NCBI GenBank assembly: GCA_035411425.1 | Contig: DAONSX010000003.1 | Span: 27,534 to 91,533 of the forward strand | Direction: 5' to 3' | From: Bacteroidales bacterium | Lineage (GTDB): Bacteria; Bacteroidota; Bacteroidia; Bacteroidales; TTA-H9 | Length of the DNA: 64,000 nucleotides | Shown: piece after piece, positions 34,687 to 62,549 of the stretch | Position numbering within the stretch: the stretch's first letter is position 1 | How the letters are laid out: the number at the start of each line of letters is the position of its first letter | Translations under genes and position numbers: made by a program | Notes under the pieces: generated by a model | Databases searched by the model: none | What the model saw: only the letters and a program-made list of their open reading frames with translations | What the model was told of the DNA's origin: nothing

Positions 34687-34695
34687 TAGAGCCTA

Positions 34696-35898
34696 ATGCT
34701 CGAAGGGAAAAATATTCTGATTGGCATCACGGGTAGCATTGCCGCTTACAAAATCCCTTTTCTTATCCGGTTATTGATCAAGAAGGGTGCGTGTGTTCAG
34801 GCAATTCTTACCCCGACAGCCTGCAATTTCGTTACACCTTTAACGATATCTACTCTCTCGAGGCGTCGAGCCATAGTAGATATGTTCGAAAAAGAATCTG
34901 GCGAATGGAATAGCCATGTAGAATTGGGTAATTGGGCCGATTTGATGTTGATTGCTCCCACGTCTGCCAACACGATTTCGAAAATGGCTTCAGGACAGGC
35001 CGACAACTTGCTACTTTGTACTTTTATGGCAGCTCGTTGCCCCGTATTCTTCGCACCGGCAATGGACGTCGACATGTATCAGCATCCATCTACACAAGCC
35101 AATATCAGAAAACTTCAGGAAATCGGATTGCATCTTATTGCTCCACAAACAGGAGAACTTGCCAGCGGCCTGACGGGAACCGGACGACTCGAAGAGCCCG
35201 AAGTAATAATTTCTGTCCTCGACGATTTCTTTAAAAAAAAAACCACACTAAAGGATAGAAAAGTCCTGATTACTGCAGGTCCCACTCGAGAACCCATAGA
35301 TCCGGTGCGATATATCAGCAATCATTCTTCGGGTTTAATGGGTTTCGCTTTGGCTGAAAAAGCCGCGGAAATGGGTGCCAAAGTAACTTTGATTAGTGGT
35401 CCGGTAAAATTGGAAACAACCCATCCAGAGATTCGACGCATAAATGTCGAAACTGCCCAGCAAATGGCAGAAACCACCCTACATTACTTTTCTGAATCCA
35501 ACATCATTATAATGGCTGCTGCCATCTCCGATTTTTCTCCAGTTGAACCCTCCCCTGAGAAAATCAAGAAACATGAGCAGGAAACACTGGTTTTGAATTT
35601 GAAACCTACAATGGATATTCTTGCCGAAATGGGCCGCCGAAAAAAGAATGATCAGATCCTAGTGGGGTTTGCTCTCGAAACAAACAACGAAAAAGACAAT
35701 GCCCTCTTCAAACTAAGAAATAAAAATGCCGATATCATCGTTTTGAACTCGACACGCGACAAAGGGGCAACCTTTGGGTTTGCCACCAATCGTGTAACTA
35801 TCTTTCATAAAAATGGTGATAGGGCACAATCAGAACTTCTACCCAAAACAGAAATTGCTCAAATGATTCTCGATTTTATCATTCAACATCATTTTTAA
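34696..35898 (+). CDS. coaBC: Bifunctional phosphopantothenoylcysteine decarboxylase / phosphopantothenate-cysteine ligase
   Basis: Flavoprotein N-terminus ILIGITGSIAAYK...PAMDVDMY..P. The CoaB half includes ITAGPTREPIDPVRYISNHSSG and AAAISDF. Confidence 0.95.
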   Translation: MLEGKNILIGITGSIAAYKIPFLIRLLIKKGACVQAILTPTACNFVTPLTISTLSRRRAIVDMFEKESGEWNSHVELGNWADLMLIAPTSANTISKMASGQADNLLLCTFMAARCPVFFAPAMDVDMYQHPSTQANIRKLQEIGLHLIAPQTGELASGLTGTGRLEEPEVIISVLDDFFKKKTTLKDRKVLITAGPTREPIDPVRYISNHSSGLMGFALAEKAAEMGAKVTLISGPVKLETTHPEIRRINVETAQQMAETTLHYFSESNIIIMAAAISDFSPVEPSPEKIKKHEQETLVLNLKPTMDILAEMGRRKKNDQILVGFALETNNEKDNALFKLRNKNADIIVLNSTRDKGATFGFATNRVTIFHKNGDRAQSELLPKTEIAQMILDFIIQHHF

Positions 35899-35903
35899 AA
35901 CTA

Positions 35904-36809
35904 TTGCGTCAAATGCGTCGTTTTGGAATTTTTATCGGCATTTTACTTTTATCCATTGCTTCAATTGGTCAGGAGCTCGATTGCCAGATTTCTGTCTCGA
36001 CACGTCAGGTAGAAGGCACCGACCGTCAGGTCTATAACACCTTGCAAACGGCTTTGTTCGAATTCATGAACAACAAACGATGGACCAACTATCAATTTAA
36101 ATTGGAGGAACGTATCGAATGCACCATGCTCATTCAAATCTCTGAAAGGCTGTCTGTAGATGAATTCAAAGGAACCATGAATGTGGTTCTCCGCAGGCCA
36201 GTATATAAAAGCAGTTACAATTCCATATTACTCAATCATGTAGATAAAGATATTCAATTCAATTATGTCGAATTCGAACCTCTTGATTTTCAGGAAAGTG
36301 CCATTACTTCGAATCTAACGGCTATATTGGCTTATTACGCCTACATCCTTATTGGTCTCGATTTCGATTCGTTTTCGTTATATGGAGGAACCCCTTTTTA
36401 TGAAAAAGCTCAGACCATTGTCAACATGGCCCAGAACCTTCCACAAAAAGGATGGAAATCGTTCGAAAGCATGCGCAATCGTTATTGGCTGGCAGAGAAT
36501 TTCAACAATACAAGTTATAATAAAATTAGGCAGTTCATTTATCAATATCACCGTCAGGGACTCGACTTGATGGCCGAAAATGTGGATCAGGGCAGAACGA
36601 ATATTATCGAGAGCCTCGAACTTATGCGTCAGGCTTACCGCGATAAACCCAATTCTTTCCTCTTGCAATTAATCCTAGATGCCAAGCGTGACGAATTTAT
36701 CAATATATTGACCGGAGCTCCCGATCAGGATAAGGTGAAAGCAGTCAATCTTCTCAAAGAAATCGACCCTGCCAATTCTACAAAATACCAAACTGTCCTC
36801 ACAAAATAA
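35904..36809 (+). CDS. DUF4835 family protein (sometimes annotated as the T9SS-associated PorD)
   Basis: Signal peptide. 301 aa. The position between coaBC and recN is conserved in Bacteroidota. The family is recalled from synteny and sequence feel, not from a search. Confidence 0.6.
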   Translation: MRQMRRFGIFIGILLLSIASIGQELDCQISVSTRQVEGTDRQVYNTLQTALFEFMNNKRWTNYQFKLEERIECTMLIQISERLSVDEFKGTMNVVLRRPVYKSSYNSILLNHVDKDIQFNYVEFEPLDFQESAITSNLTAILAYYAYILIGLDFDSFSLYGGTPFYEKAQTIVNMAQNLPQKGWKSFESMRNRYWLAENFNNTSYNKIRQFIYQYHRQGLDLMAENVDQGRTNIIESLELMRQAYRDKPNSFLLQLILDAKRDEFINILTGAPDQDKVKAVNLLKEIDPANSTKYQTVLTK

Positions 36810-36843
36810 TCTTGCCACAATTCGAATTTCAAAATGCTATTCG

Positions 36844-36851
36844 TAATTTTG
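36844..36851 (+). promoter_or_regulatory. Bacteroidota-type -7 promoter box (TAnnTTTG)
   Basis: TAATTTTG lies 19 nt upstream of the recN ATG at 36871. Confidence 0.45.
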
Positions 36852-36870
36852 AACAATTAGGAATAACACT

Positions 36871-38523
36871 ATGCTTTGCAGGCTGAGCGTCAAAAATTAT
36901 GCTTTAATCGAAGAACTCGAGTTCGAACCCGGGCCGGGATTCAATATTATTACAGGCGAAACCGGTGCAGGAAAATCTATCTTACTCGGAGCTCTGGGGC
37001 TTATTCTTGGAAATAGGGCCGATATGCAGGCATTACGCGATAACTCACAAAAATGTATTGTGGAAGGCACTTTCAAAGTAAACCTCGAACCCGTAAATCG
37101 ATTCCTTTACGAAAACAATCTGGATGTTTGCGATGAGCTCATCATGAGAAGGGAAATCCTGCCAGGAGGAAAATCACGGGCCTTCGTCAACGATACACCC
37201 GTTAATCTCAATGCATTGAAAATTATTGGAGATATGTTGGTCGACATTCATTCACAGCATGAAAACCTCCTGGTAAATGAAGCCCAATTCCAGCTTGCCG
37301 TTCTCGACGACTTTGCCCGTAATAAAGAAATCCTATCGAGTTATTATGCCCAATATCTGGATTATCGCAATAAAACCACCAAACTGGAGTTACTCAGCGA
37401 ACAAGAAGCAAAATCGATGGCCGAACAGGATTTTATTCACTTCCAGCTCGATGAACTTCATGAAGCCCATATCGAACCAGGAGAACAAGCTAAGATCGAA
37501 AACGAACTCTCTTTACTCACACATGCAGAAGAAATTAAAACTCGACTGTCAGAAATGATTCAAATTCTGGATGACGAGGATTCGGGCGTAATTCCTGCAC
37601 TTGCCAGCCAATTTTCGAACCTGAACAGCCTTATTCGTTTCGATGAAGCTCTCAAAGAGATAGAATCGAGATACACAAGCTGTTTCTATGAACTCAAGGA
37701 CATATTGCAGGAATTGATTAAATATGCCGACACTATACATTACACACCCGATAGGATAGCGGCTCTCAGTCAGCGCCTCGATATTCTTTTCCGCCTGCAG
37801 CAAAAGCATCGCGTAAAAGATGCCGACGAGCTGATCGAAGTAAAAGAACATTTCATCGAAAAACTGAATTCCTATGCTTCGTTGAATGAACAGATAGAAT
37901 CGCTTCAACAAGAAATTATCTGGATAGAAGGAGAACTCGAAGAAAAAGCCAATCGATTATCAGACAGAAGGAAGGCTGCTATACAGCCCATTCAGCATCA
38001 ATTGAAAGAATCACTCTCAGAGCTGGGAATGCCCGATGCCAGCATTGAAGTAGTTTTAGAATCCACAACCGATTTTATCGAAACCGGGAAAAACAGAGTA
38101 AATTTTCTATTTAGTGCCAATGTGGGGCAAGAACCTCGAAGCATCTCTAAGGTTGCCTCGGGAGGAGAGATTTCGCGATTGATGCTGGCTATCAAATCAT
38201 TGATTTCGAATAAAACCATGATTCCGGTTCTCATTTTCGATGAAATCGACGCCGGAGTTTCGGGTGGAATAGCAGCCAAAGCAGGCAGGCTGATGAAACA
38301 AATGGCCAGAAATATGCAAATCATTGCCATTACACATATACCACAAATTGCGGCACTGGGAGACAACCATTTTCTGGTATCCAAAAAAATAAATAAAGGC
38401 ACCACCCAGAGCATTATCGAACGACTTTCAACCGAAGGAAGAATCAGAGAACTGGCCGGGATGCTTAGTAATCACGAAATTACTCAAGAGGCCATAGCGG
38501 CTGCTAAACAATTGTTGAAGTGA
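36871..38523 (+). CDS. recN: DNA repair protein RecN
   Basis: Walker A ITGETGAGKSILLGAL, a long coiled-coil middle, and a C-terminal ASGGEISRLMLAIK...LIFDEIDAGVSG. Confidence 0.95.
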   Translation: MLCRLSVKNYALIEELEFEPGPGFNIITGETGAGKSILLGALGLILGNRADMQALRDNSQKCIVEGTFKVNLEPVNRFLYENNLDVCDELIMRREILPGGKSRAFVNDTPVNLNALKIIGDMLVDIHSQHENLLVNEAQFQLAVLDDFARNKEILSSYYAQYLDYRNKTTKLELLSEQEAKSMAEQDFIHFQLDELHEAHIEPGEQAKIENELSLLTHAEEIKTRLSEMIQILDDEDSGVIPALASQFSNLNSLIRFDEALKEIESRYTSCFYELKDILQELIKYADTIHYTPDRIAALSQRLDILFRLQQKHRVKDADELIEVKEHFIEKLNSYASLNEQIESLQQEIIWIEGELEEKANRLSDRRKAAIQPIQHQLKESLSELGMPDASIEVVLESTTDFIETGKNRVNFLFSANVGQEPRSISKVASGGEISRLMLAIKSLISNKTMIPVLIFDEIDAGVSGGIAAKAGRLMKQMARNMQIIAITHIPQIAALGDNHFLVSKKINKGTTQSIIERLSTEGRIRELAGMLSNHEITQEAIAAAKQLLK

Positions 38524-38562
38524 TTTTGTTTGAAAATTTTAAACGAAATACATCGATCAAGT

Positions 38563-39393
38563 ATGTCGTATAATTTACTAAAAGGAAAGAAAGGTATTAT
38601 TTTCGGCGCACTCGACCATAAGAGTATTGCATGGAAAGTTGCCGAAAAGGCCTACGAAGAAGGTGCACGCATCGTGCTCACCAACACTCCCGCTGCTATT
38701 CGTTTTGGAGAAATCGAACAATTGGCCGAAAAAACTCAGAGCATTGTCATTCCAGCCGATGCTACCAATGTCAATGACATTGAAAACGTCTATCTTCAAG
38801 GAATGGAATTTTTAGACGGGAAAATCGATTTTCTTCTGCATTCGATTGGAATGTCGATGAATGTGAGAAAAAATAGACCCTACGATGACGTGGATTACGA
38901 CTATTTCTTGAAAACACTCGACATTTCTGCCTTATCGTTCCACAAAATCGTTCAAGTGGCCAAGAAATTGGATGCCATCGAAGAATGGGGCAGCATAGTA
39001 GCCTTATCATACATTGCCGCTCAACGGACGCTCTTTCGATACAATGATATGGCCGACGCAAAGGCTACCCTCGAATCGATTGCCCGAAGCTTTGGATATA
39101 TTTACGGACGAGAAAAAAAAGTAAGGATCAATACGGTTTCGCAATCACCTACACTTACAACCGCTGGAAGCGGTGTAAAAGGAATTGACGATTTGTACGA
39201 CTTTACCGACAGAATGTCTCCATTGGGAAATGCCTCCGCCGAAGAATGTGCCGCTTACATCATCACCCTTTTCTCTGACCTCACGCGAAAGGTAACCATG
39301 CAAAATCTATTTCATGACGGGGGTTTTTCGAGCATGGGAATGAGTGCCCGCGCCATGACCATGTATTGCCATAGCCTTAACCCTGAAGAATGA
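38563..39393 (+). CDS. fabI: Enoyl-[acyl-carrier-protein] reductase (NADH) FabI
   Basis: LKGKKGIIFGALDHKSIAWKVAE..GA is the FabI-type nucleotide-binding start. An SDR-like core follows. The ATG at 38563 is preferred over the ORF-track TTG at 38530. Confidence 0.8.
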   Translation: MSYNLLKGKKGIIFGALDHKSIAWKVAEKAYEEGARIVLTNTPAAIRFGEIEQLAEKTQSIVIPADATNVNDIENVYLQGMEFLDGKIDFLLHSIGMSMNVRKNRPYDDVDYDYFLKTLDISALSFHKIVQVAKKLDAIEEWGSIVALSYIAAQRTLFRYNDMADAKATLESIARSFGYIYGREKKVRINTVSQSPTLTTAGSGVKGIDDLYDFTDRMSPLGNASAEECAAYIITLFSDLTRKVTMQNLFHDGGFSSMGMSARAMTMYCHSLNPEE

Positions 39394-39465
39394 ACATGTG
39401 AACCCGACGAAGAAACCTGATACGAGAATTTTTTCTAAATTTTGATAAGCATCAGAATGAATTGC

Positions 39466-41052
39466 TTAGGAGGTTCCGGGATGCTGGATATCAAGTACCT
39501 TTTTTATGCCTAATTTTCGTATCTTGGAATCCAGAGTTTTTGGATTTATACCTAAAAGCCGAGCTGCACCATCTTCACCACTCACCTTCCCGTTGGTCAA
39601 ACGAAGAGCCTCTAAAATATGCTCTATCTCAACTTCTTTGAGGGTCTTCATTGTTTTTCTGAGTTTTTCGACTTGAAACAGAGAGGGCGATGTTTTGAAA
39701 TCACTAAAATTCAATATATCACCTGTAGTCAAAATAACTGCCTTTTGAATGATATGCTTAAGTTCACGAACATTCCCCGGCCATTGATAGTTCATGAGTT
39801 TTTGCATGTCCATTTCACTTATCTTTAGGTAGGGCTTACCCAACACCCCCCCATAATATTCGATGAAATAATGGATAAGGGCCGGAATATCTTCTACACG
39901 CTCCCTCAAAGGAGGGATATAAATCGGAAATGCATTCAAACGGAAATAAAGATCGCTGCGAAATCTTCCGGCTTTTATTTCTTCTTCGAGCTTACGATTA
40001 CTGGCTGCCACAATCCTCACATCAACATGTATAGTTTGTGTGCCGCCTATTCGTTCTATATCCTTCTCCTGAAGAACTCTGAGAAGTTTTGCCTGTAATT
40101 CGAAAGGCATGTCACCTATTTCATCTAAAAAAATGGTACCCCCATTGGCCAGTTCGAATTTTCCGATCCGACGCTCGGAGGCTCCCGTAAAACTCCCCTT
40201 CTCATGTCCAAAAAGCTCCGATTCGATAAGGTTGGGTGGCAAAGCCGCACAATTCACCATTACCAACGGACCCTTATTCCGTGAGGAACTGCAATGTATG
40301 GCTTTTGCAATAAGCTCTTTCCCCACACCGGTTTCCCCTTCCAATAATACCGTGGAATCCGTTGGAGCTACCTGCCTGACCTTATACAATACTTGCTTCA
40401 TTTGCTGGCTCTCCGCCACTAAGTCCTCTTTGCCAAACTTAAATTGCCATTCCTTTAATGAGGCTTTCTTTTCGTTCTCTAACTGAGCTCTTAATTGCTG
40501 ACATTGCTCGAACGAAAAATAATTCTCAATAATCAATCTTATTTGAGGTAATAAACATTCCAACACCATTGTTTCTTCTTCGCTAAATGCATCGGCCGAT
40601 TTGCTGCCTAATGATAATATCATCTTACGCGATTCTTCCGGGTTCAAAGCCATAAAAACTACCGATCGAATATTTAAGTTGCGGATTTCCCGATAAAGAC
40701 TGTCCGAACCAATGAGTGCCAGAAATTTTTCACTGCTCAGGCGAAATAGAGACGGGCTCCCCTTGCTAAAATATTCCCTTTTGGGTGGTAAAATTTTGAA
40801 GCTGTCAGGTAAATGTATAAACCGAAAAGAATCATCTTCCAATTTTATAAAAGTTGCTTCGATAATAACATCTAAGCTGGCATTGAGAATGGCAAAATTA
40901 AAAATATCGAATTTTACCAGCTTGTGTAATTCCCTGCTCAAATGCAGGAAGATATCAGGATGGTTTATTACCTCGAGAAGATGTTTTACAAAGTCAACCT
41001 GAAGCTGGCTTATCTGCTTCAATTTTTCGATTTCATTATCGTAAATCTTCAT
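39466..41052 (-). CDS. Sigma-54-dependent transcriptional activator (bacterial enhancer-binding protein) with a GAF-like N-terminal sensory region and no receiver domain
   Basis: AAA+ core with Walker [16 protein letters not shown], the sigma-54 contact loop [15 protein letters not shown] (a GAFTGA variant), and RVIAASNR-type sensor [12 protein letters not shown]-terminal Fis-type [24 protein letters not shown]. Confidence 0.92.
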
Positions 41053-41413
41053 GACAAAGCCCTTTCAAGATTTTCAAATCCAACGAAAAAGCAAAGATGA
41101 TCATTCGTAAGATAAAAAGCAATACAAAGGGATGAAACTTGGCTGTGGAAATGTCGAATCGATAATGATAAGGAAAATTCCGAAGCCTGATAAGTTCAAG
41201 GGACGGAATCCAATGTTGAAGCATACACTTGGCTTCGCCGGCCGTATTATGAAGACCGCACTTCTGGTAAATGGCTTCGAAAAATGGTATTAATCCGAGA
41301 AAGCAAGAGTGAATTAGAACCAAATAACTGTTTTTCGGGCAAAAAGCTCGATGTTCATCCATAATAATGGCATTGGCTTCATGAATAGGAAATAAACTCT
41401 CTATGGCATTCAT
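41036..41413 (-). CDS. Hypothetical 125-aa protein, possibly co-transcribed and translationally coupled with the sigma-54 activator
   Basis: The ORF overlaps the activator start by 17 nt and is preceded by a TAnnTTTG box 30 nt upstream. It contains 5 Cys and several His. No family recognised, so it could be non-coding leader. Confidence 0.35.
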
Positions 41414-41443
41414 AAAAAGGGGAATTTCTGAAATTTAAGAATG

Positions 41444-41451
41444 CAAAAATA
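41444..41451 (-). promoter_or_regulatory. Bacteroidota-type -7 promoter box (TAnnTTTG) for the 125-aa ORF / activator operon
   Basis: The minus strand reads TATTTTTG, 30 nt upstream of the ATG at 41413. Confidence 0.4.
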
Positions 41452-41456
41452 GGAAA

Positions 41457-41472
41457 TTCTTAATATTAAGAA
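41457..41472. promoter_or_regulatory. Perfect 16-bp palindrome, candidate upstream activating sequence (EBP binding site)
   Basis: TTCTTAATATTAAGAA equals its own reverse complement. Its centre lies about 84 nt upstream of the -24 GG of the sigma-54-type promoter. Confidence 0.4.
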
Positions 41473-41546
41473 AAATAATATTTCGGGGAAAATTATATTC
41501 CATTGAAAATCAATATAAAACAAAAGGAAAAAAATTTTTGGCACTA

Positions 41547-41561
41547 TGGCTTTAATTTTGC
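41547..41561 (+). promoter_or_regulatory. Sigma-54 (-24/-12) type promoter
   Basis: TGGCtttaattTTGCt: the GG (41548-49) and GC (41560-61) have the canonical spacing of TGGCAC-N5-TTGC. About 130 nt upstream of the ATG at 41694 and next to a divergent sigma-54 activator gene. Confidence 0.6.
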
Positions 41562-41693
41562 TATTCTTCACAGTCAATTTAAAAAACAAAAATCCTTTCG
41601 TCTTTACGACATGAATTTTTCCAAAAAAAGTTGTCCGAAGATGCGGGAAAAAACCTTAAAAACCAATTCATAAATTTAAAAAAACCCAAGTGT

Positions 41694-42212
41694 ATGAAAA
41701 AGTTAGGATTATTTACTGCAGGCCTTTTCGTAATGGTCTTTGCCGCTCAAAATGTGAACGCCCAATCAGGTGCACAGGCAAGTGCAAGCGCTAATGCAAC
41801 AGCAACTGTGGTCTCGGTTGTCACCGTTGCCAAATCAGCAGACCTTGATTTTGGTACCTTTGCCAGTGGATTAACAGCGGGTACCGTATCAATGGAAACA
41901 AATGGGGACAGATATAAAACAGGAGGTGTTGTCCTCTTACCTACGGATGTGGGTAACCCTGCAACCTTTACTGCGTATGGACCAGCTACTGAACATTATT
42001 TTATAACTTTACCTGACGATGATGATGTTACCCTTACTTTATCAGGTGGTACTGAGACGATGGACATTAGTGGATTTATTCATAATGCTTCTGGAATTTT
42101 TGGTGCCGGCGGTTCTGAATCATTCAATGTAGGAGGAGTATTAAATGTTCATGCACTTCAAGCTGCAGGACTATATACCGGAACTTTCGATGTAATCGTT
42201 ACCCTGCAATAA
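41694..42212 (+). CDS. Secreted DUF4402-like (spore-coat-U/Csu-like) putative major fimbrial subunit
   Basis: Signal peptide MKKLGLFTAGLFVMVFAAQNVNA. The mature N-terminus is Ala/Ser-rich followed by an alternating strand TATVVSVVTVA. The DLDFGTF...GTVSM..NGDR..TGGV motif matches the DUF4402 pattern. The ATG at 41694 is preferred over the TTG at 41631. Confidence 0.6.
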   Translation: MKKLGLFTAGLFVMVFAAQNVNAQSGAQASASANATATVVSVVTVAKSADLDFGTFASGLTAGTVSMETNGDRYKTGGVVLLPTDVGNPATFTAYGPATEHYFITLPDDDDVTLTLSGGTETMDISGFIHNASGIFGAGGSESFNVGGVLNVHALQAAGLYTGTFDVIVTLQ

Positions 42213-42231
42213 TGAAATCAACTTCTTAGTA

Positions 42232-42264
42232 AAGGGGCGGCCTAAAGCTGCCCTTTTAATTTTT
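42232..42264 (+). terminator. Hairpin plus T-run directly after the first subunit gene (candidate intra-operon attenuator)
   Basis: Stem 42232-42241 pairs with 42247-42256 (10 bp, two G-U pairs) across the loop ctaaa, followed by taattttt. It lies between the stop at 42212 and the chaperone start at 42277. Confidence 0.45.
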
Positions 42265-42276
42265 AAAAACGAACGA

Positions 42277-43158
42277 ATGCACAAGGGAAAACTTATAAAA
42301 ACAAGACTGCAACACAGGGGAAGGGCTTATGGTGTTAAAGGGGGATGGTTTTTCGTTATTTTACTTTTAGTGTGTCCATTTTTAGGGATAGCGCAGGGCG
42401 ATTTGCTCATTACTCCACGGCGGGTGGTGTTGGAAGGAAACAAGAAAACAGAAGAGATAGCGGTAGCCAATGTAGGGCAAGATACGGCATTCTATAATAT
42501 TTCACTGATAGAATTCCACATGCATGAAGATGGGCGTATGGAACAGATTACCGAACCCATGTCCGGGCAGAAGTTTGCTACGCCAATGTTGCGTTTTTTC
42601 CCGCGTTCCATCAAGCTTGCGCCTCAGGAATCACAAGTTATACGAATACAGGTAAGGCGGCTTCCCAATATGGAAGAAGGCGAATATCGTTCGCACCTTT
42701 ATTTCAGGGCTGTACCCAAATCGAGGCCAGAAGGCGAAAAAACCGAAGAAACCGACACTACTTCTCTCAAAATAAGGCTCATCCCTATCTATGGCATCTC
42801 CATTCCAGTTATCGTACGCATCGGTAATTTGTCGGCTACTTTAACCATCAGTGATTTAAGCCTCGAGCAGCAGGAAGGGCAAACCACGCGGCTTAAGATG
42901 ACATTGAACCGCCAGGGCACGCAATCGGTTTATGGCAATGTTACGGTAGATTATGTTGCTCCCGGAAAAGAACCCGTAAGAGTAAGCCTGGTAAAAGGGG
43001 TTGCCGTTTACACGCCCAATACTTTACGCTATTTTTCGATGCCTTTGACACTTCCCGAAGGGTTTAGTTGGGATAAAGGAAAACTTGTAATACGTTTTAC
43101 CGATGCAAACGAAGCAAAACCTTATATCTTCGACGAAAAAGAATTGGTATTGCCTTGA
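42277..43158 (+). CDS. PapD-like periplasmic fimbrial chaperone
   Basis: Signal-like segment WFFVILLLVCPFLGIAQG. LLITPRRVVLEGN..TEEIAVANVG....YNISL and LRFFPRSIKLAPQESQVIRIQVRRLP..EEGEYRSHLYF.AVP follow the pili-assembly-chaperone N-domain pattern. Confidence 0.6.
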   Translation: MHKGKLIKTRLQHRGRAYGVKGGWFFVILLLVCPFLGIAQGDLLITPRRVVLEGNKKTEEIAVANVGQDTAFYNISLIEFHMHEDGRMEQITEPMSGQKFATPMLRFFPRSIKLAPQESQVIRIQVRRLPNMEEGEYRSHLYFRAVPKSRPEGEKTEETDTTSLKIRLIPIYGISIPVIVRIGNLSATLTISDLSLEQQEGQTTRLKMTLNRQGTQSVYGNVTVDYVAPGKEPVRVSLVKGVAVYTPNTLRYFSMPLTLPEGFSWDKGKLVIRFTDANEAKPYIFDEKELVLP

Positions 43159-43240
43159 AAAACTTCACTTGATAAATTTTTGTATCGTAGAGGTAAATAT
43201 AAAAATAATCAAATAAGATGATGAGAAGAAAAAGAATAAA

Positions 43241-43741
43241 ATGCCCAAGGATATGCGGAGAGTAAAGATTTTCATTGGTCTTATTTTTTTTTCATTTTCT
43301 CTTTATGCCCAAAGGACCAGCGAATTAAAGGTTCATGTAAGTCAAGAATTATCATTCGGTTCATTTTATAGTGGACGTAGTGGTGGAACTATTACTATTT
43401 CTCCAGATGGCAATCGATGGGTCACGGGTGAAATTATCTTATTAGTCAATTCGAGTGGATGTCCTGCTTTATTAGAAATTGAAGCACCTCCTAACCGTAC
43501 CATTCATGTTGAATTTCCCGTTTCTGCAGAAATAAAGCAGGCAGGGGGTCAGCAAAACCTTACTATCAATAATTTTACCACCGATAAACTCAACAATAGT
43601 TTATTAACTTCCTCCAGAGACCTTCCTTACGGAAATCAGGTTAGGGTCGGGGCAACGCTTACAGTACCAGGCTCAGTCACCCTTTCTTCCGGAAATTATA
43701 TTGGCAATTTCAGAATAAATGTAGTATGTATTCAGGAATAG
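43241..43741 (+). CDS. Second DUF4402-like putative fimbrial subunit (minor or tip)
   Basis: Signal peptide ending SLYAQ. ELSFGSFYSGRSGGTITISPDGNRWVTGEIILL parallels the motif in the first subunit. Confidence 0.55.
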   Translation: MPKDMRRVKIFIGLIFFSFSLYAQRTSELKVHVSQELSFGSFYSGRSGGTITISPDGNRWVTGEIILLVNSSGCPALLEIEAPPNRTIHVEFPVSAEIKQAGGQQNLTINNFTTDKLNNSLLTSSRDLPYGNQVRVGATLTVPGSVTLSSGNYIGNFRINVVCIQE

Positions 43742-43747
43742 ATTAAT

Positions 43748-46678
43748 GTGCATAACAACAAATCCTTCTTTTGCTACCTTCATTTCTTATTGGGAAAAGC
43801 CATACATCAATTTCCTATCCTGTGGATTTTATGGCTAGCATTTTTTATTTCGAATCCTCTCAAAATAAATTGTCAAAACAATCAAAGCGAAGAACTACCA
43901 GCGATAGAAGAAATTCCTGTCAGCATACGGATAGAAAGTGTAGGGGCAGGTATGATGAATTCCCTCTATGAGTATGAATCGGAGAAGCTGTTTTTGCCCG
44001 TATTAGAATTATTCCGATTTCTTCAGATAAAGGCAGAACCTTCGGTTACACTCGATTCTATCAGCGGTTTCATAGGAAAAGAGGAGTACCGCTATCTTAT
44101 TGATAACCATTACAAAAAGATCTTTTTCAGGGGGAAAGATTTTTCCATAGCTGAAAATCAGTCGATGAATACGGGAGACGATCTTTACATAGATTCTCGT
44201 CTTTTTGGTGAAATATTCGGTTTGCATTGCAAGTTCAACTTTCGCAATCTTTCTGTTACGATAAAACCCGATTTCGAATTGCCTGTCATAAGGAAAATGA
44301 GGATCGAACAATTCAGAAAGAACATCAAACAGTTAAGAGGTGAGGTAGAAGCAGATACTACTTTAAAGCACCAGCATGAGCTTTGGAAATTCGGTATGAT
44401 GGATTGGGCTGCCACTTCGACACAAAGCACCGACAGCAAAACCAGCAGCCAGTTTTGGTTAAGAACCGGTGCCGAAGCATTATATGGCGAAACCAATTTG
44501 CAGCTTTATTATTCCTCGCTTAATGAATTTACGAACCGCAACTTACAATACTACTGGCGATGGGTGGACAACCAGAATAAAGTCATTCGCCAGGTAAGAG
44601 CAGGCAGAATATCTCCTATGTCTATTTCTTCCATCTATAATCCTATAACAGGCATCAGCATTACCAATGCTTCGACCTTATATCGTCGTTCTTTTGGAGA
44701 ATACACTATTTCCGACTACACCGAGCCAGGCTGGACTGTCGAACTTTACGTAAACAATGTGATTGTAGATTATCAAATTGCCGATGCTTCAGGGTTTTAC
44801 AAATTCAATATTCCTTTGGTATATGGAGCTTCGGAGGTGATGCTGAAATTTTATGGGCCTTATGGTGAAGAACGCATTCAGCGTATATTCCTAAATGTTC
44901 CTTTTAGCTTCCTACCGCCAGGTGAGCTGGAATATACTGTGAATTCTGGTCTTGTTCTCGATGACAAGAACTCACATTTTGAAAGAGCCGATGTAAAATA
45001 TGGCGTCAAACGTTATCTGACCATTGGGGGTGGTTTCGAATATCTGTCTTCTATCGTTTCGGGCAAGGAAATACCTTTTATAAATGCATCCGTTGCGCCA
45101 GTCCGGAATTTACTCATTAGCAGTGAATATGCCAAAGGAGTACAAACCAAATTGTTGGCAAATTACAGGCTTGTATCGGGTTCATCGTTCGAGCTAAAAT
45201 ATACTCATTATGTTCCCGGGCAGCAAGCCGTGCGGGTAAGCTATCTGGAGGATTGGCAAGCCACTCTTTCGATGCCGGTTCGTTTCCCAAAATTCAGTGC
45301 TTATTCTCGTCTATCGTATAGGCGAAATGTATATAAAACAACTACTTACAACATTGCCAGTATTACACTTTCGTCATATATAAAAAAACTGAATGCCAGT
45401 ATAAGTGCGTATGCCAATTGGATGGATGGAGACGATCCATTCATTTATGCAAATATCGGACTCGGTTTGCCTCAATGGAAAGGATTTACCTCCCGCGTAC
45501 AATCGCAAATCAATTTTAGCGACAATAGGGTTATTTCTCTCAGAGCCGAAATAGAGAAACGGATATTGCGGCAGGGATACCTTTCCCTAATGGGCGAGGA
45601 AAATTTCCAATCGAAATATCGTGCAATTAGCCTTTCTTTTCGATGGACTGTTCCTTTTTCGCAGGTAAATTTAGCTACTCGCTTGTCGAACAACGAATTT
45701 ATGATTACCGAAGGAGCTCAGGGCAGTTTTGCCTTTGGAAGCGGGAAAGGCTATGTGCATGCCGAAGATCGTCCTTCCGTAGGAATGGGAGGATTATCCA
45801 TCATTTCTTTTATAGACCTCAATCACAATTACAAAAGAGACAGTGGCGAACGCTTGGTTAAGGGGCTTGCCATGCGCATCAATGGCGGTCGTGTCATACA
45901 GGGGGAAAAAGATTCTATTATCCGTGTGGTGGGTTTAATTCCCTATACCGACTATATCCTTACCATAGACGAAAAAAGTCTCGAAGAGATTTCTTATCGT
46001 ATTGCGCATAAAGTCATTCGCATTTATGCCGAGCCTAATCAATTCAAAAAAATAGAGATTCCTGTACTGCCCATGGGAGAAATAAACGGCTGGGTATTGA
46101 GGAAAGACGGTACCGGCCAAAGAGGCGAAGGACACATCATCATCGATATTTATTCGTCCATAGGGAAAAAGATAGCTTCTACGATTACCGAAAGAGATGG
46201 CGCATTTAGTTATCTTGGCTTACCTCCTGGCCATTACATAGCCCGCTTAGATTCGGCTCAAGTGGCAAAACTTGGCATAGTGTCATCTCCTTCCGAAATA
46301 CCTTTCGAAATCAAACCCGACGTTCTGGGCGATGTGGTTTACGATTTGAACTTTTTCGTCGAAAGACCTCCAACAGAGGACAAAAAAATTACCGAAACCC
46401 CAAAAGACACTCTAAAAGTTACAGAAATAAGAATACCGCTTGTTCAAGAGTTTTACACTCTTCAAACGGGGGCTTTCAAACATAAGCATAATGCCGAACA
46501 ACTTTCCGAAACCCTGAAAAGAACCTTTGAATTACCTGTCTGGATAAAATATGAAAACAAACTTTACAAAGTAAGAATAGGCAGATTTTCCGACTATATC
46601 GAAGCAAAAAACTTTCGAAGTATGCTAAGAGAAAAAGGATTCGACGCTTTCATCATCGAAAAAAAGAGCAATAACTGA
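43748..46678 (+). CDS. Usher-like outer-membrane protein with C-terminal CarboxypepD_reg-like and SPOR (peptidoglycan-binding) domains
   Basis: 976 aa and beta-rich. The segment WTVELYVNNVIVDYQIADASGFYKFNIPLVYGASEVMLKFYGPYGEE resembles the conserved usher motif (V.V..NG......V..G.F.I......G....V.....G.E). The C-terminus YTLQTGAFKHKHNAEQL...YKVRIGRFSDYIEAKNFRSMLREKGFDAFII is a SPOR domain. The GTG start is uncertain. Confidence 0.55.
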   Translation: MHNNKSFFCYLHFLLGKAIHQFPILWILWLAFFISNPLKINCQNNQSEELPAIEEIPVSIRIESVGAGMMNSLYEYESEKLFLPVLELFRFLQIKAEPSVTLDSISGFIGKEEYRYLIDNHYKKIFFRGKDFSIAENQSMNTGDDLYIDSRLFGEIFGLHCKFNFRNLSVTIKPDFELPVIRKMRIEQFRKNIKQLRGEVEADTTLKHQHELWKFGMMDWAATSTQSTDSKTSSQFWLRTGAEALYGETNLQLYYSSLNEFTNRNLQYYWRWVDNQNKVIRQVRAGRISPMSISSIYNPITGISITNASTLYRRSFGEYTISDYTEPGWTVELYVNNVIVDYQIADASGFYKFNIPLVYGASEVMLKFYGPYGEERIQRIFLNVPFSFLPPGELEYTVNSGLVLDDKNSHFERADVKYGVKRYLTIGGGFEYLSSIVSGKEIPFINASVAPVRNLLISSEYAKGVQTKLLANYRLVSGSSFELKYTHYVPGQQAVRVSYLEDWQATLSMPVRFPKFSAYSRLSYRRNVYKTTTYNIASITLSSYIKKLNASISAYANWMDGDDPFIYANIGLGLPQWKGFTSRVQSQINFSDNRVISLRAEIEKRILRQGYLSLMGEENFQSKYRAISLSFRWTVPFSQVNLATRLSNNEFMITEGAQGSFAFGSGKGYVHAEDRPSVGMGGLSIISFIDLNHNYKRDSGERLVKGLAMRINGGRVIQGEKDSIIRVVGLIPYTDYILTIDEKSLEEISYRIAHKVIRIYAEPNQFKKIEIPVLPMGEINGWVLRKDGTGQRGEGHIIIDIYSSIGKKIASTITERDGAFSYLGLPPGHYIARLDSAQVAKLGIVSSPSEIPFEIKPDVLGDVVYDLNFFVERPPTEDKKITETPKDTLKVTEIRIPLVQEFYTLQTGAFKHKHNAEQLSETLKRTFELPVWIKYENKLYKVRIGRFSDYIEAKNFRSMLREKGFDAFIIEKKSNN

Positions 46679-47011
46679 CATTATGGCTTTTATCACAAAA
46701 AATAGTTCGAGTATAGTATCTGAATGGAAATCAATATGGAAAAGAAGTTCAACGGGAATACTACGAATCTGGCACAAATTTGGAGGCGGTAAGAGCGAAA
46801 TATCAAAAAGTGAAAGTTTTTCGGCACCAATCTGGATGAAAAGAAATTCGTAACGTGTTTCTTTCATCAGTTACAGCAGAAGAATATTTCAAAAAATGGT
46901 TCAGGAATGATGAATCAAGATATCAGCAGAAGCCTGCAAGTTTTTCTGCAATAATTGGGGTTGAAAGACAGAAATTAAAGAATTAATAACTAACTAAAAC
47001 AAGAAAAAGCT

Positions 47012-47674
47012 ATGAAAAACAAAAGGGTGGTCTTAGCAGCATTGTTGATGATTACGATGGTTGCTTTTTCGGTACAAACGAAAGCACAAAAGGGTTATTC
47101 ATTCAATGTAAACGCTATGGTTCAAAATTCATGGTTGTTTAATTCGGATGACAGTGATATGGATAATTTTTCCCAGAAAGCTTATATCCATCCAGCTTTA
47201 AGCATAGGTGCGGGATACAACTTTACCGAAAAGTTAGGAATGGGATTAGACGTAATGTATTCGTTTCAGGGACGCAAACAGGAAGTAGGTGGAGTGGAAA
47301 CGCGTATAAAACTCGATTACGTCAAAATTCCTCTGTATTTCCATTTCAACACTAATCCTGCTCAGAAGTGGATGTTCAGCCTAAATGTGGGGCCTCAATT
47401 CAATATTCTGACCACTGCCAAGTATCTCGATGCCAATGACAACGAAATGGACATCAAGCATCATTACGAAAATTTGACTTTTGGTGGTTTTATTGGAGCT
47501 GGGGGAGAATATCAAATTAATTCCAAATTCAATGTATTTGGCATGGTGAGATTCGATTATGATTTTACCAATCCGGAAAATAAGGATGCATTGGGATACA
47601 ATCCCGATCGAGCTAATTCGCATAACTCCACTTTAGGTCTGCAAGTAGGGTTACGTTATAAATTAGGTGAATAA
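47012..47674 (+). CDS. Porin-family small outer-membrane beta-barrel protein (OMP_b-brl_2-like)
   Basis: Signal peptide ending TKAQKG, alternating beta-strand pattern, 220 aa, and the terminal strand LGLQVGLRYKLGE. Confidence 0.75.
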   Translation: MKNKRVVLAALLMITMVAFSVQTKAQKGYSFNVNAMVQNSWLFNSDDSDMDNFSQKAYIHPALSIGAGYNFTEKLGMGLDVMYSFQGRKQEVGGVETRIKLDYVKIPLYFHFNTNPAQKWMFSLNVGPQFNILTTAKYLDANDNEMDIKHHYENLTFGGFIGAGGEYQINSKFNVFGMVRFDYDFTNPENKDALGYNPDRANSHNSTLGLQVGLRYKLGE

Positions 47675-47757
47675 GGAATTAATTGCCTATAAATTCACCG
47701 GTTCTGCTTCCGGTACATATAAAAAGCAGGCTTCTGTGAGTGTTTTGGTTGATTATG

Positions 47758-62265: not shown

Positions 62266-62549
62266 TACAATATCTCCTTTTATGATAAGTAACCAAGTTA
62301 TCTCCCATTTCAGGAGTTCATTATGAATACTAAAACCAGTGATGAAAGCAGGTTACAAAACTCAAATTTCAGGCCAGAGTTTACCGCATGCCGAAATGGC
62401 TTTGAATTCAAAGCTCAAATATGAACCTGCGCTGATGAACAGATCATTCACCGAATAAAGAGCTGAGCATCTTTTTCCATAATTTTTAGGACTTTTCTCT
62501 TTTGCACTTCAGTTGAAAGCACAACAAGAAAACAAATTGCTAAACTGAT

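Follow-up and report, generated by a model that had tools for sequence, protein, structure and literature searches.

Between two divergent transcription units of a Bacteroidales genome, a 280-base AT-rich intergenic stretch (positions 41414-41693, 26% GC) separates the leftward genes for a small open reading frame (ORF125) and a sigma-54 enhancer-binding protein (EBP) from a rightward operon that begins with a DUF4402 subunit gene. Positions are those of the window, i.e., the whole stretch of 64,000 nucleotides that was analysed. We consider it likely, from motifs and their spacing, that 41414-41693 serves a sigma-54 activator module as its divergent control region. Its motifs, their geometry and their conservation recur across a family of EBPs with the domain order GAF-GAF-AAA+-HTH (HTH, helix-turn-helix). 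We infer that the EBP binds the dyads described below, that sigma-54 uses the -24/-12 pair and that the activator represses itself. An initial annotation had proposed dyads upstream of a -24/-12 promoter, with the activator's own TAnnTTTG promoter inside the binding region, and the sequences of related loci uphold the core of that model.

Elements of the control region

The region contains the following elements:

41414-41441 and 41445-41472: two 28-nucleotide (nt) direct repeat units whose starts are 31 nt apart; a 16-bp dyad closes each unit (repeat search)
41426-41441: dyad 1, TTCTGAAATTTAAGAA, a copy of the perfect palindrome; proposed distal EBP site, covering the predicted EBP transcript start
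41444-41451, minus strand: TATTTTTG, Bacteroidota -7 box (TAnnTTTG) for ORF125 and the EBP gene, between the dyads and 30 nt from the ORF125 ATG
41457-41472: dyad 2, the perfect palindrome TTCTTAATATTAAGAA; proposed EBP site proximal to the promoter
41539-41544, plus strand: an extra TGGCAC, 82 nt after the start of dyad 2, without a -12 partner (CTTT there)
41547-41562, plus strand: candidate sigma-54 promoter, TGGCTT-TAATT-TTGCT, with GG at 41548-41549 and GC at 41560-41561
41553-41560, plus strand: TAATTTTG, a rival -7 box of the sigma-A type, an exact TAnnTTTG overlapping the -12 element; AAATTTTG in L096 and L098

Direct reading of 41200-41800 finds the promoter core where it had been placed, with TGGC at 41547-41550 and TTGC at 41558-41561, seven bases apart. 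Written as TGGCTT-N5-TTGC, it has the GG-N10-GC arrangement of a sigma-54 promoter, it starts 90 nt after the start of dyad 2, and its transcript is predicted to begin near 41572-41574. The context agrees, in that an EBP bearing the GSFTGA motif is encoded divergently and its candidate sites lie within 70-150 bp upstream. A published survey allowed TGGCAC-N5-7-TGC as the sigma-54 range, and the window and family sites fit that spacing (PMC12316311).

The centres of the dyads lie 84 nt (dyad 2) and 115 nt (dyad 1) upstream of the GG of the -24 element, the former as described earlier. Exact matches to TTCTNAANNTTNAGAA occur only twice in the window, in dyads 1 and 2, and both dyads are intact and identical in the strain variants L096 and L098. 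The initial annotation had also marked a 6+1+6 palindrome, AATTTCtGAAATT, as a second site. It is present at 41423-41435, but it is not conserved and we rejected it as a functional unit; it is a mis-registration of dyad 1, and the second site itself is the sequence at 41426-41441. A third dyad-like copy, TTCATAAATTTAAAAA at 41667-41682, does not fit the conserved TTCT/AGAA positions and was attributed to chance. Another dyad-like sequence with one mismatch, TTCTAAATTTTGATAA, lies at 39433-39448, just past the EBP stop codon and before a short-chain dehydrogenase gene, and is probably chance. By inspection, the phasing of A-tracts from the dyads to the promoter looks irregular.

The plus-strand letters CAAAAATA at 41444-41451 give the minus-strand -7 box noted earlier for the activator. 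This box lies between the proposed dyads of the activator, an overlap of sites and promoter of the kind known from autoregulated EBP/sigma-54 regions. For a -33 element on the minus strand, no plus-strand CAAA was found in 41465-41485. The additional TGGCAC at 41539-41544 is likewise where it had been reported.

Shuffles of 41414-41693 indicate how much each motif is worth. A plus-strand TGGC-N7-TTGC arose in 66 of 200,000 shuffles (3.3e-4) and a 16-bp perfect palindrome in 310 of 20,000, and for TAnnTTTG the chance level was 11% (plus strand) and 35% (minus strand). The evidential value of the TAnnTTTG box therefore comes from its conserved position in relatives, and not from the motif alone. 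The complete pattern TTCT-N8-AGAA-N15-TTCT-N8-AGAA occurs once in the window, in the control region and with 0 mismatches; 0.12 occurrences are expected at up to 2 mismatches. The remaining 3 TGGC-N7-TTGC matches of the window all lie within long ORFs, and the control-region match is the sole intergenic one in 64 kb. Beyond dyad 2, the window has one further perfect palindrome of 16 bp, GCTTTGAATTCAAAGC at 62399-62414.

Conservation across the activator family

The comparison set comprised 11 family loci, 9 from Bacteroidales, one from Hymenobacter (L103) and one from an Ignavibacteria metagenome-assembled genome (MAG; L104). Loci were gathered via contigs encoding EBP relatives and one metagenome scan, and the DNA upstream of each EBP gene was read. 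The metagenome scan, which used an alignment of the N-terminal domains, yielded 7 loci; a scan of genome contigs with the full-length EBP returned only generic EBPs of other phyla, matched via AAA+, and no true relative. The EBPs of the 11 loci have 31-63% identity to the window EBP.

Two dyads 31-32 nt apart are present in all 11 loci, beginning 12-39 nt from the EBP start codon. Their half-sites and the recognition helices of the HTH are as follows:

Bacteroidales (9 loci): dyad TTCT-N8-AGAA, recognition helix KTLDS(R/K)(M/I)RKLG
Hymenobacter (L103): dyad TCCT-N8-AGGA, recognition helix KTLEARMKKLG
Ignavibacteria MAG (L104): dyad TGCT-N8-AGCA, recognition helix KTLGSKMRKLG

Half-site and recognition helix vary in step, which is the best available evidence, drawn from comparison, to suggest that the EBP itself reads the dyads. 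The resulting candidate binding-site consensus for this uncharacterised activator family is TTCTTAAATATAAGAA, in two copies 31 bp apart.

Downstream of the dyads, a -24 element containing GG is found in 11 of 11 loci. In the 9 Bacteroidales loci it reads TGGCAY (AGGAAY in L094 and L095) and lies 92-95 nt after the start of dyad 2; the Hymenobacter locus has 125 nt here and the Ignavibacteria MAG 67 nt. At the -12 positions aligned to (T)TTGC, the family has TTGGA, TTGAA, TTTAA, TTGGT, TTGGG or TTTGA, and ACTGA in L104. GC at -12 is absent from all 11 family promoters examined, and TTGC occurs in the window site only. The initial annotation had looked to orthologous regions for conservation of both the palindrome and the GG-N10-GC element; the dyads and the -24 are indeed conserved, but GG-N10-GC is kept solely in same-species loci. 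The family may have a lineage-specific sigma-54 preference at -12. Most family promoters also show an A-rich stretch ending in GG, 5-8 nt downstream of the -12 region.

On the EBP strand, the window and 7 of 9 related Bacteroidales loci (L081, L086, L087, L093, L094, L095 and L090, the last a near-duplicate of L081) have TAnnTTTG (CAAAnnTA) in the inter-dyad spacer, at register 3-4. The box of L082, L083 and L092 is situated elsewhere, in the stretch from dyad 1 to the ATG. The placement of this -7 box within the activator's own binding region is thus, as judged from these alignments, a family trait, which supports the autoregulation idea. These same three loci, L082, L083 and L092, carry tandem TGGCA elements, and their leaders from the sigma-54-type promoter to the gene for an outer-membrane protein (OMP) are GC-rich and about 230 nt long (L082 5596-5842; L083 1357-1626; L092 2057-2307; minus strand in all three). 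The leaders share the long-range pairings GGCUG...CAGCC and GCAGG...CCUGC, and across these three sequences a structured leader may be present.

The activator side of the region consists of two overlapping genes:

39466..41052, minus strand: sigma-54 EBP, 528 amino acids (aa), with one GAF-like region, AAA+ and a Fis-type HTH
41036..41413, minus strand: ORF125, 125 aa, with an overlap of 17 nt with the EBP start; the control region has its left edge at the ORF125 ATG (41413)

The EBP has the marks of a bacterial enhancer-binding protein, with Pfam matches to Sigma54_activat (PF00158, E=1.8e-73), AAA_lid_14 and HTH_8 and with the motifs GETGVGKE and GSFTGA in its translation; it scores below the cut-off of every named NCBIfam equivalog. 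Its relatives form an unnamed GAF-GAF-AAA+-HTH family of Bacteroidota and Ignavibacteria. They are 691-735 aa long with two GAF domains, and compared with every one of them the window EBP lacks about 165 aa at its N-terminus. It does not have the two-GAF, full-length form of the family; it does share the other family marks, namely two TTCT-N8-AGAA dyads close to the start codon, 31-32 nt apart, and an envelope-related divergent target. In tblastn with full-length relatives, only residues 173-690 of P0002 aligned, and nothing matching the first GAF domain (residues 1-172) was found upstream of 41052. We found no paper on this EBP family in a literature search.

The divergent activator transcription unit begins at the ATG of ORF125. 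What had been called the activator operon is the gene of an EBP that has no recognisable first GAF domain, and a 125-aa ORF stands ahead of it in the place of that domain. Residues 1-33 of ORF125 align with residues 1-33 of the family N-terminus, resembling MKSIETLLLVNEAIATISDTEELFC. The match of the family N-terminal hidden Markov model to ORF125 is weak (E=0.24, 33 residues), and ORF125 has no match in Pfam or NCBIfam. From its position and the 33-residue resemblance, ORF125 is probably a degenerate remnant of the first GAF domain. The split between ORF125 and the EBP recurs in the independent assemblies L084, L096 and L098, and L085 and L089 match the window over the junction at 480 of 480 and 508 of 509 nt, so the split is real and not an assembly error. 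An identical 528-aa EBP is called in two other independently assembled contigs (L084 and L085), and the 90%-identity cluster has 77 members. The metagenome contig L089 lacks a single base within the EBP gene (about position 427, window 40981), in all likelihood through a sequencing error, as the remaining assemblies have the window's sequence. Relative to L096, the window differs at 7 nt and 5 aa in ORF125, equal to the counts in the EBP, which is four times longer.

The fimbria-like operon as an insert

The genes to the right of the control region are:

41694..42212, plus strand: major subunit (Pfam DUF4402, E=1.9e-23), with signal peptide and pilin-like fold; hypervariable between strains
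42230..42258, plus strand: hairpin and T-run directly after the major subunit gene; possible attenuator or terminator
42277..43158, plus strand: PapD-like periplasmic chaperone candidate (PapD_N 22.5 bits, cut-off 23; FimC E=0.14)
43241..43741, plus strand: second DUF4402 subunit (Pfam DUF4402, E=1.1e-22)
43748..46678, plus strand: 976-aa protein in the usher position, with C-terminal SPOR (E=2.3e-11) and weak SdrD_B
47012..47674, plus strand: OMP beta-barrel gene (Pfam OMP_b-brl, E=3.4e-14), divergent from the EBP in the closest relatives

The case for a fimbrial target is made by the DUF4402 matches, the borderline PapD_N match and the fold of the major subunit. The model of this subunit has a predicted local distance difference test score (pLDDT) of 88, and its top 7 Foldseek matches in the PDB are chaperone-usher (CU) pilins (CfaB and Caf1), with CsuA/B and Fim subunits lower; these matches are weak (E 3e-3 to 0.1, TM score 0.3-0.44). 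That the first DUF4402 protein is a fimbrial subunit is reasonable but not proven. The 976-aa protein has no Usher match in Pfam, NCBIfam or PDB sequences, and a C-terminal peptidoglycan-binding SPOR domain is unusual for an outer-membrane assembly platform. An Rfam search of 41300-47100 gave no match, folding of the fimbrial leader (41573-41700) does not surpass that of shuffled sequences (z=-1.4), and a literature search found no paper that mentions DUF4402.

L096 is collinear with window 34694-47708 at 99.33% identity, with 87 mismatches and no gaps. Of these mismatches, 54 fall inside the major DUF4402 gene (window 41716-42150 versus L096 7023-7457), so that the subunits agree at 135 of 172 aa (78%) while the remaining locus is about 99.7% identical. 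Such hypervariability of a surface subunit between near-identical strains suggests diversifying selection or allele replacement.

The target driven by the module in relatives is either an OMP gene or an RND efflux operon. A 220-aa OMP gene is divergent from the EBP in the closest relatives (L081, L082, L083, L090 and L092); more distant relatives have RND efflux operons opposite the EBP. Synteny on the EBP side covers BamD, RpoZ, CoaBC, DUF4835, RecN and the short-chain dehydrogenase. The following elements mark the junctions in the window:

41507-41516, plus strand: left copy of the direct repeat AAATCAATAT, at the left insert edge and at offset 96 from the EBP start
46728-46737, plus strand: right copy of AAATCAATAT, at the right insert edge, 32 nt before TGGCAC as in L081
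46770-46785, plus strand: ancestral promoter-like TGGCACAAATTTGGAG upstream of the OMP gene, now 5.3 kb from the dyads

Each 10-nt copy of AAATCAATAT is placed where L081 has a single ancestral copy, and AAATACAATAG of L081 lies at the same offset of 96 from the EBP start as the left copy. The 16-mer TGGCACAAATTTGGAG is identical in L081 and L090, where it stands 233 nt before the OMP start codon. The upstream activating sequence region of the window (41423-41475) and its OMP gene region (46972-47664) each have 81% DNA identity to L081. On account of the OMP synteny, these identities, the surviving TGGCACAAATTTGGAG and the AAATCAATAT pair at ancestral spacings, about 5.2 kb (roughly 41517-46737) appears to have been inserted; the alternative of two losses in relatives is less parsimonious. 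A 9-nt repeat, TATGGCTTT (41545 and 46682), was rejected as the insert boundary, since it is the AAATCAATAT pair that preserves the ancestral spacing at either end. The insert flanks contain no inverted repeats and no mobility genes.

The promoter had been described as aimed at the fimbrial gene; the orientation holds, but the fimbrial cluster is a lineage-specific insert that separates the dyads from the older OMP promoter, and the candidate sigma-54 promoter itself lies 23-45 nt inside it. In the 330 nt upstream of the OMP gene (46679-47011), no plus-strand TAnnTTTG box and no plus-strand terminator-like site were found, and expression of the OMP gene may rely on transcripts that read through from the fimbrial operon, or on activation over a long range. 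A possible but tentative account of the whole locus is that a conserved envelope regulon, with an OMP or an RND efflux pump as its ancestral target, captured the hypervariable fimbria-like cassette between its binding sites and its sigma-54 promoter, with an activator minus its first sensor domain and with a family -12 of the non-canonical TTGG/TTGA kind. If true, a pilus would be placed under an activator that may be signal-blind or always active, and the family -12 would point to an altered -12 preference of sigma-54 in Bacteroidota.

Proposed mechanism, alternatives and known systems

In the proposed mechanism, the EBP would bind dyads 1 and 2 via its C-terminal Fis-type HTH. The dyads are 31 bp apart and would therefore lie on the same helix face. 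Bound EBP oligomers would contact sigma-54 RNA polymerase at 41547-41562, some 84-115 bp downstream, by DNA looping, and would spend ATP to open the promoter (open complex). The transcript, starting at about 41573, would have a leader of some 120 nt ahead of four genes, for the DUF4402 subunit, the PapD-like chaperone, the second DUF4402 subunit and the usher-like protein. In the opposite direction, the activator's -7 box would act from the 15-nt inter-dyad spacer, with the ORF125/EBP transcript predicted to start inside dyad 1. Because the box is flanked by dyads and the start falls within dyad 1, occupied dyads would hinder ORF125/EBP transcription, i.e., act as negative autoregulation.

Several observations weigh against this reading. 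The candidate promoter matches the sigma-54 consensus at 9 of 11 positions (TGGCtt), and L096 is weaker still (TGGTtt). Its canonical TTGC at -12 is not a conserved family feature, and its -24 element is 2-5 nt nearer the dyads than in relatives. Over the whole window, motif counts are at chance level, with no enrichment: 4 TGGC-N7-TTGC matches against 1.79 expected, 29 matches to the 16-nt sigma-54 consensus with up to 2 mismatches against 23.5, 63 TAnnTTTG against 62.6 and 2 perfect 16-bp palindromes against 1.5 in shuffles. The rpoN gene was not found within the window. The loss of a recognisable first GAF domain means that regulation or activity of the EBP may be altered. Loci that share the same fimbrial operon are 99% identical and so add little on conservation of the -24 and -12 elements.

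The last two points of this kind concern transcription by sigma-A. The initial annotation had named a start from a TAnnTTTG box as the finding that would overturn its model, and an exact plus-strand box of this kind, TAATTTTG at 41553-41560, does overlap the -12 element. In addition, TAnnTTTG boxes are present in the orthologous DUF4402 clusters of the Anaerorudis type (L099, L101 and L105), which lack an EBP, the dyads and a sigma-54 core. Sigma-54 control is therefore not general to DUF4402 clusters. (Anaerorudis-type clusters also carry an extra 691-aa protein of unknown family.) It could be argued from this, and from the imperfect sigma-54 match, that an inserted cassette need not be wired to the EBP at all: sigma-A would transcribe the fimbrial operon from TAATTTTG, TGGC-N7-TTGC would be incidental, and the dyads would only autoregulate the EBP, perhaps activating 46770-46785 remotely.

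We regard this alternative as unlikely. In shuffles of the region, TAnnTTTG arises by chance in 11% but the sigma-54 core in 0.03%, and the core stands at a family-typical distance from the dyads. The -33 element of Bacteroides promoters usually lies about 19-21 nt from the -7 box; for TAATTTTG, the nearest upstream TTTG (41537-41540) is merely 12 nt away. Strain variation bears on the same question. Over 341 aligned nt (41380-41720), L096 and L098 differ from the window at 6 positions, three of them in 41550-41565: TGGC becomes TGGT, TAATTTTG becomes AAATTTTG, and one base changes just after TTGC. GG and GC are retained in both. This pattern, from a single comparison, slightly favours the sigma-54 reading. 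Between strains, ORF125 and the promoter core have a substitution density 4-5 times that of the flanks.

It is also quite improbable that the true -24 is the TGGCAC at 41539-41544 with a non-canonical -12, making TGGCTT-N5-TTGC a decoy or a secondary site. This TGGCAC is the exact hexamer of the family promoters, whose -12 regions are non-canonical too; tandem TGGCA elements exist in three relatives, as mentioned above; and a distance of 82 nt from dyad 2 is about one helical turn short of 92-95 nt, on the same face. However, the sequence at its -12 positions is GCTTT, with no TTG where the family has TTG(G/A), and for this reason we favour 41547-41562, a site that has the canonical TTGC and also agrees at 4 of 5 positions with the TTTGA class seen in L094 and L095. 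Least probable of all is a decaying remnant, in which the first GAF was lost, the dyads were cut off from the OMP target and the motifs near 41547 are functionless: the shortened EBP, the weak resemblance of ORF125 to the family N-terminus, the raised substitution density and the old OMP promoter stranded 5.3 kb away would fit, but no catalytic or DNA-binding motif is missing from the 528-aa EBP, which is identical in L084 and L085 and whose 90%-identity cluster has 77 members, the dyads (one a perfect palindrome) are unchanged in L096 and L098, and a 125-codon frame has been kept open in AT-rich DNA.

Taking 41414-41693 as the control region of a sigma-54 module, the locus and its relatives offer a site consensus, a fixed geometry between sites and promoter, and a nested activator promoter that predicts self-repression. 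They would also provide a concrete example of a regulatory module that is re-used upon insertion of a surface-structure operon. If confirmed, a variable fimbria of an anaerobic Bacteroidales bacterium would be linked to an envelope-type sigma-54 regulon. Regulation by sigma-54 in Bacteroidota is known mainly through motif scans (e.g., PMC12316311).

The putative target resembles the archaic CU pili (Csu of Acinetobacter) in its gene order of subunit, chaperone, subunit and large outer-membrane protein, and the best, though weak, fold matches of the DUF4402 model are CU pilins (Caf1, CfaB and CsuA/B). Unlike in CU operons, there is no Usher match, and the large protein has a C-terminal SPOR domain. 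Sigma-54 control is typically found at type IV pilin genes and not at CU operons.

Among activators, FhlA, the formate hydrogenlyase activator, is the named equivalog with the longest alignment (EBP residues 127-518 versus 296-688 of 692), and the full-length EBP relatives have its GAF-GAF-AAA+-HTH order. The window EBP is not FhlA, since it reaches 348 bits against a cut-off of 830 bits, and it differs in having no first GAF domain; the family targets are envelope genes (OMP, RND efflux, fimbriae) and not hydrogenase genes. The layout resembles pspF-pspA of Escherichia coli, in which PspA controls PspF, a protein devoid of any regulatory domain, and IHF assists looping. There, too, a divergent activator has two sites about 80-130 bp from a -24/-12 promoter that overlap the activator's housekeeping promoter, with negative autoregulation as the outcome, and the activator is without a full N-terminal sensor domain. 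The present locus differs in its one GAF-like region, its TAnnTTTG activator promoter, its unrelated site sequence and its fimbria-like target. In the xylR (Pr)/xylS (Ps1) region of the TOL plasmid pWW0, the EBP sites for the sigma-54 promoter likewise overlap the divergent activator promoter, and bound XylR represses its own synthesis; unlike the window EBP, XylR has a V4R/XylR-N sensor, comes from Pseudomonadota and controls catabolic genes. The EBP family is uncharacterised and belongs to little-studied bacteria; by analogy, its control logic would be textbook, of the pspF-pspA and xylR-xylS type.

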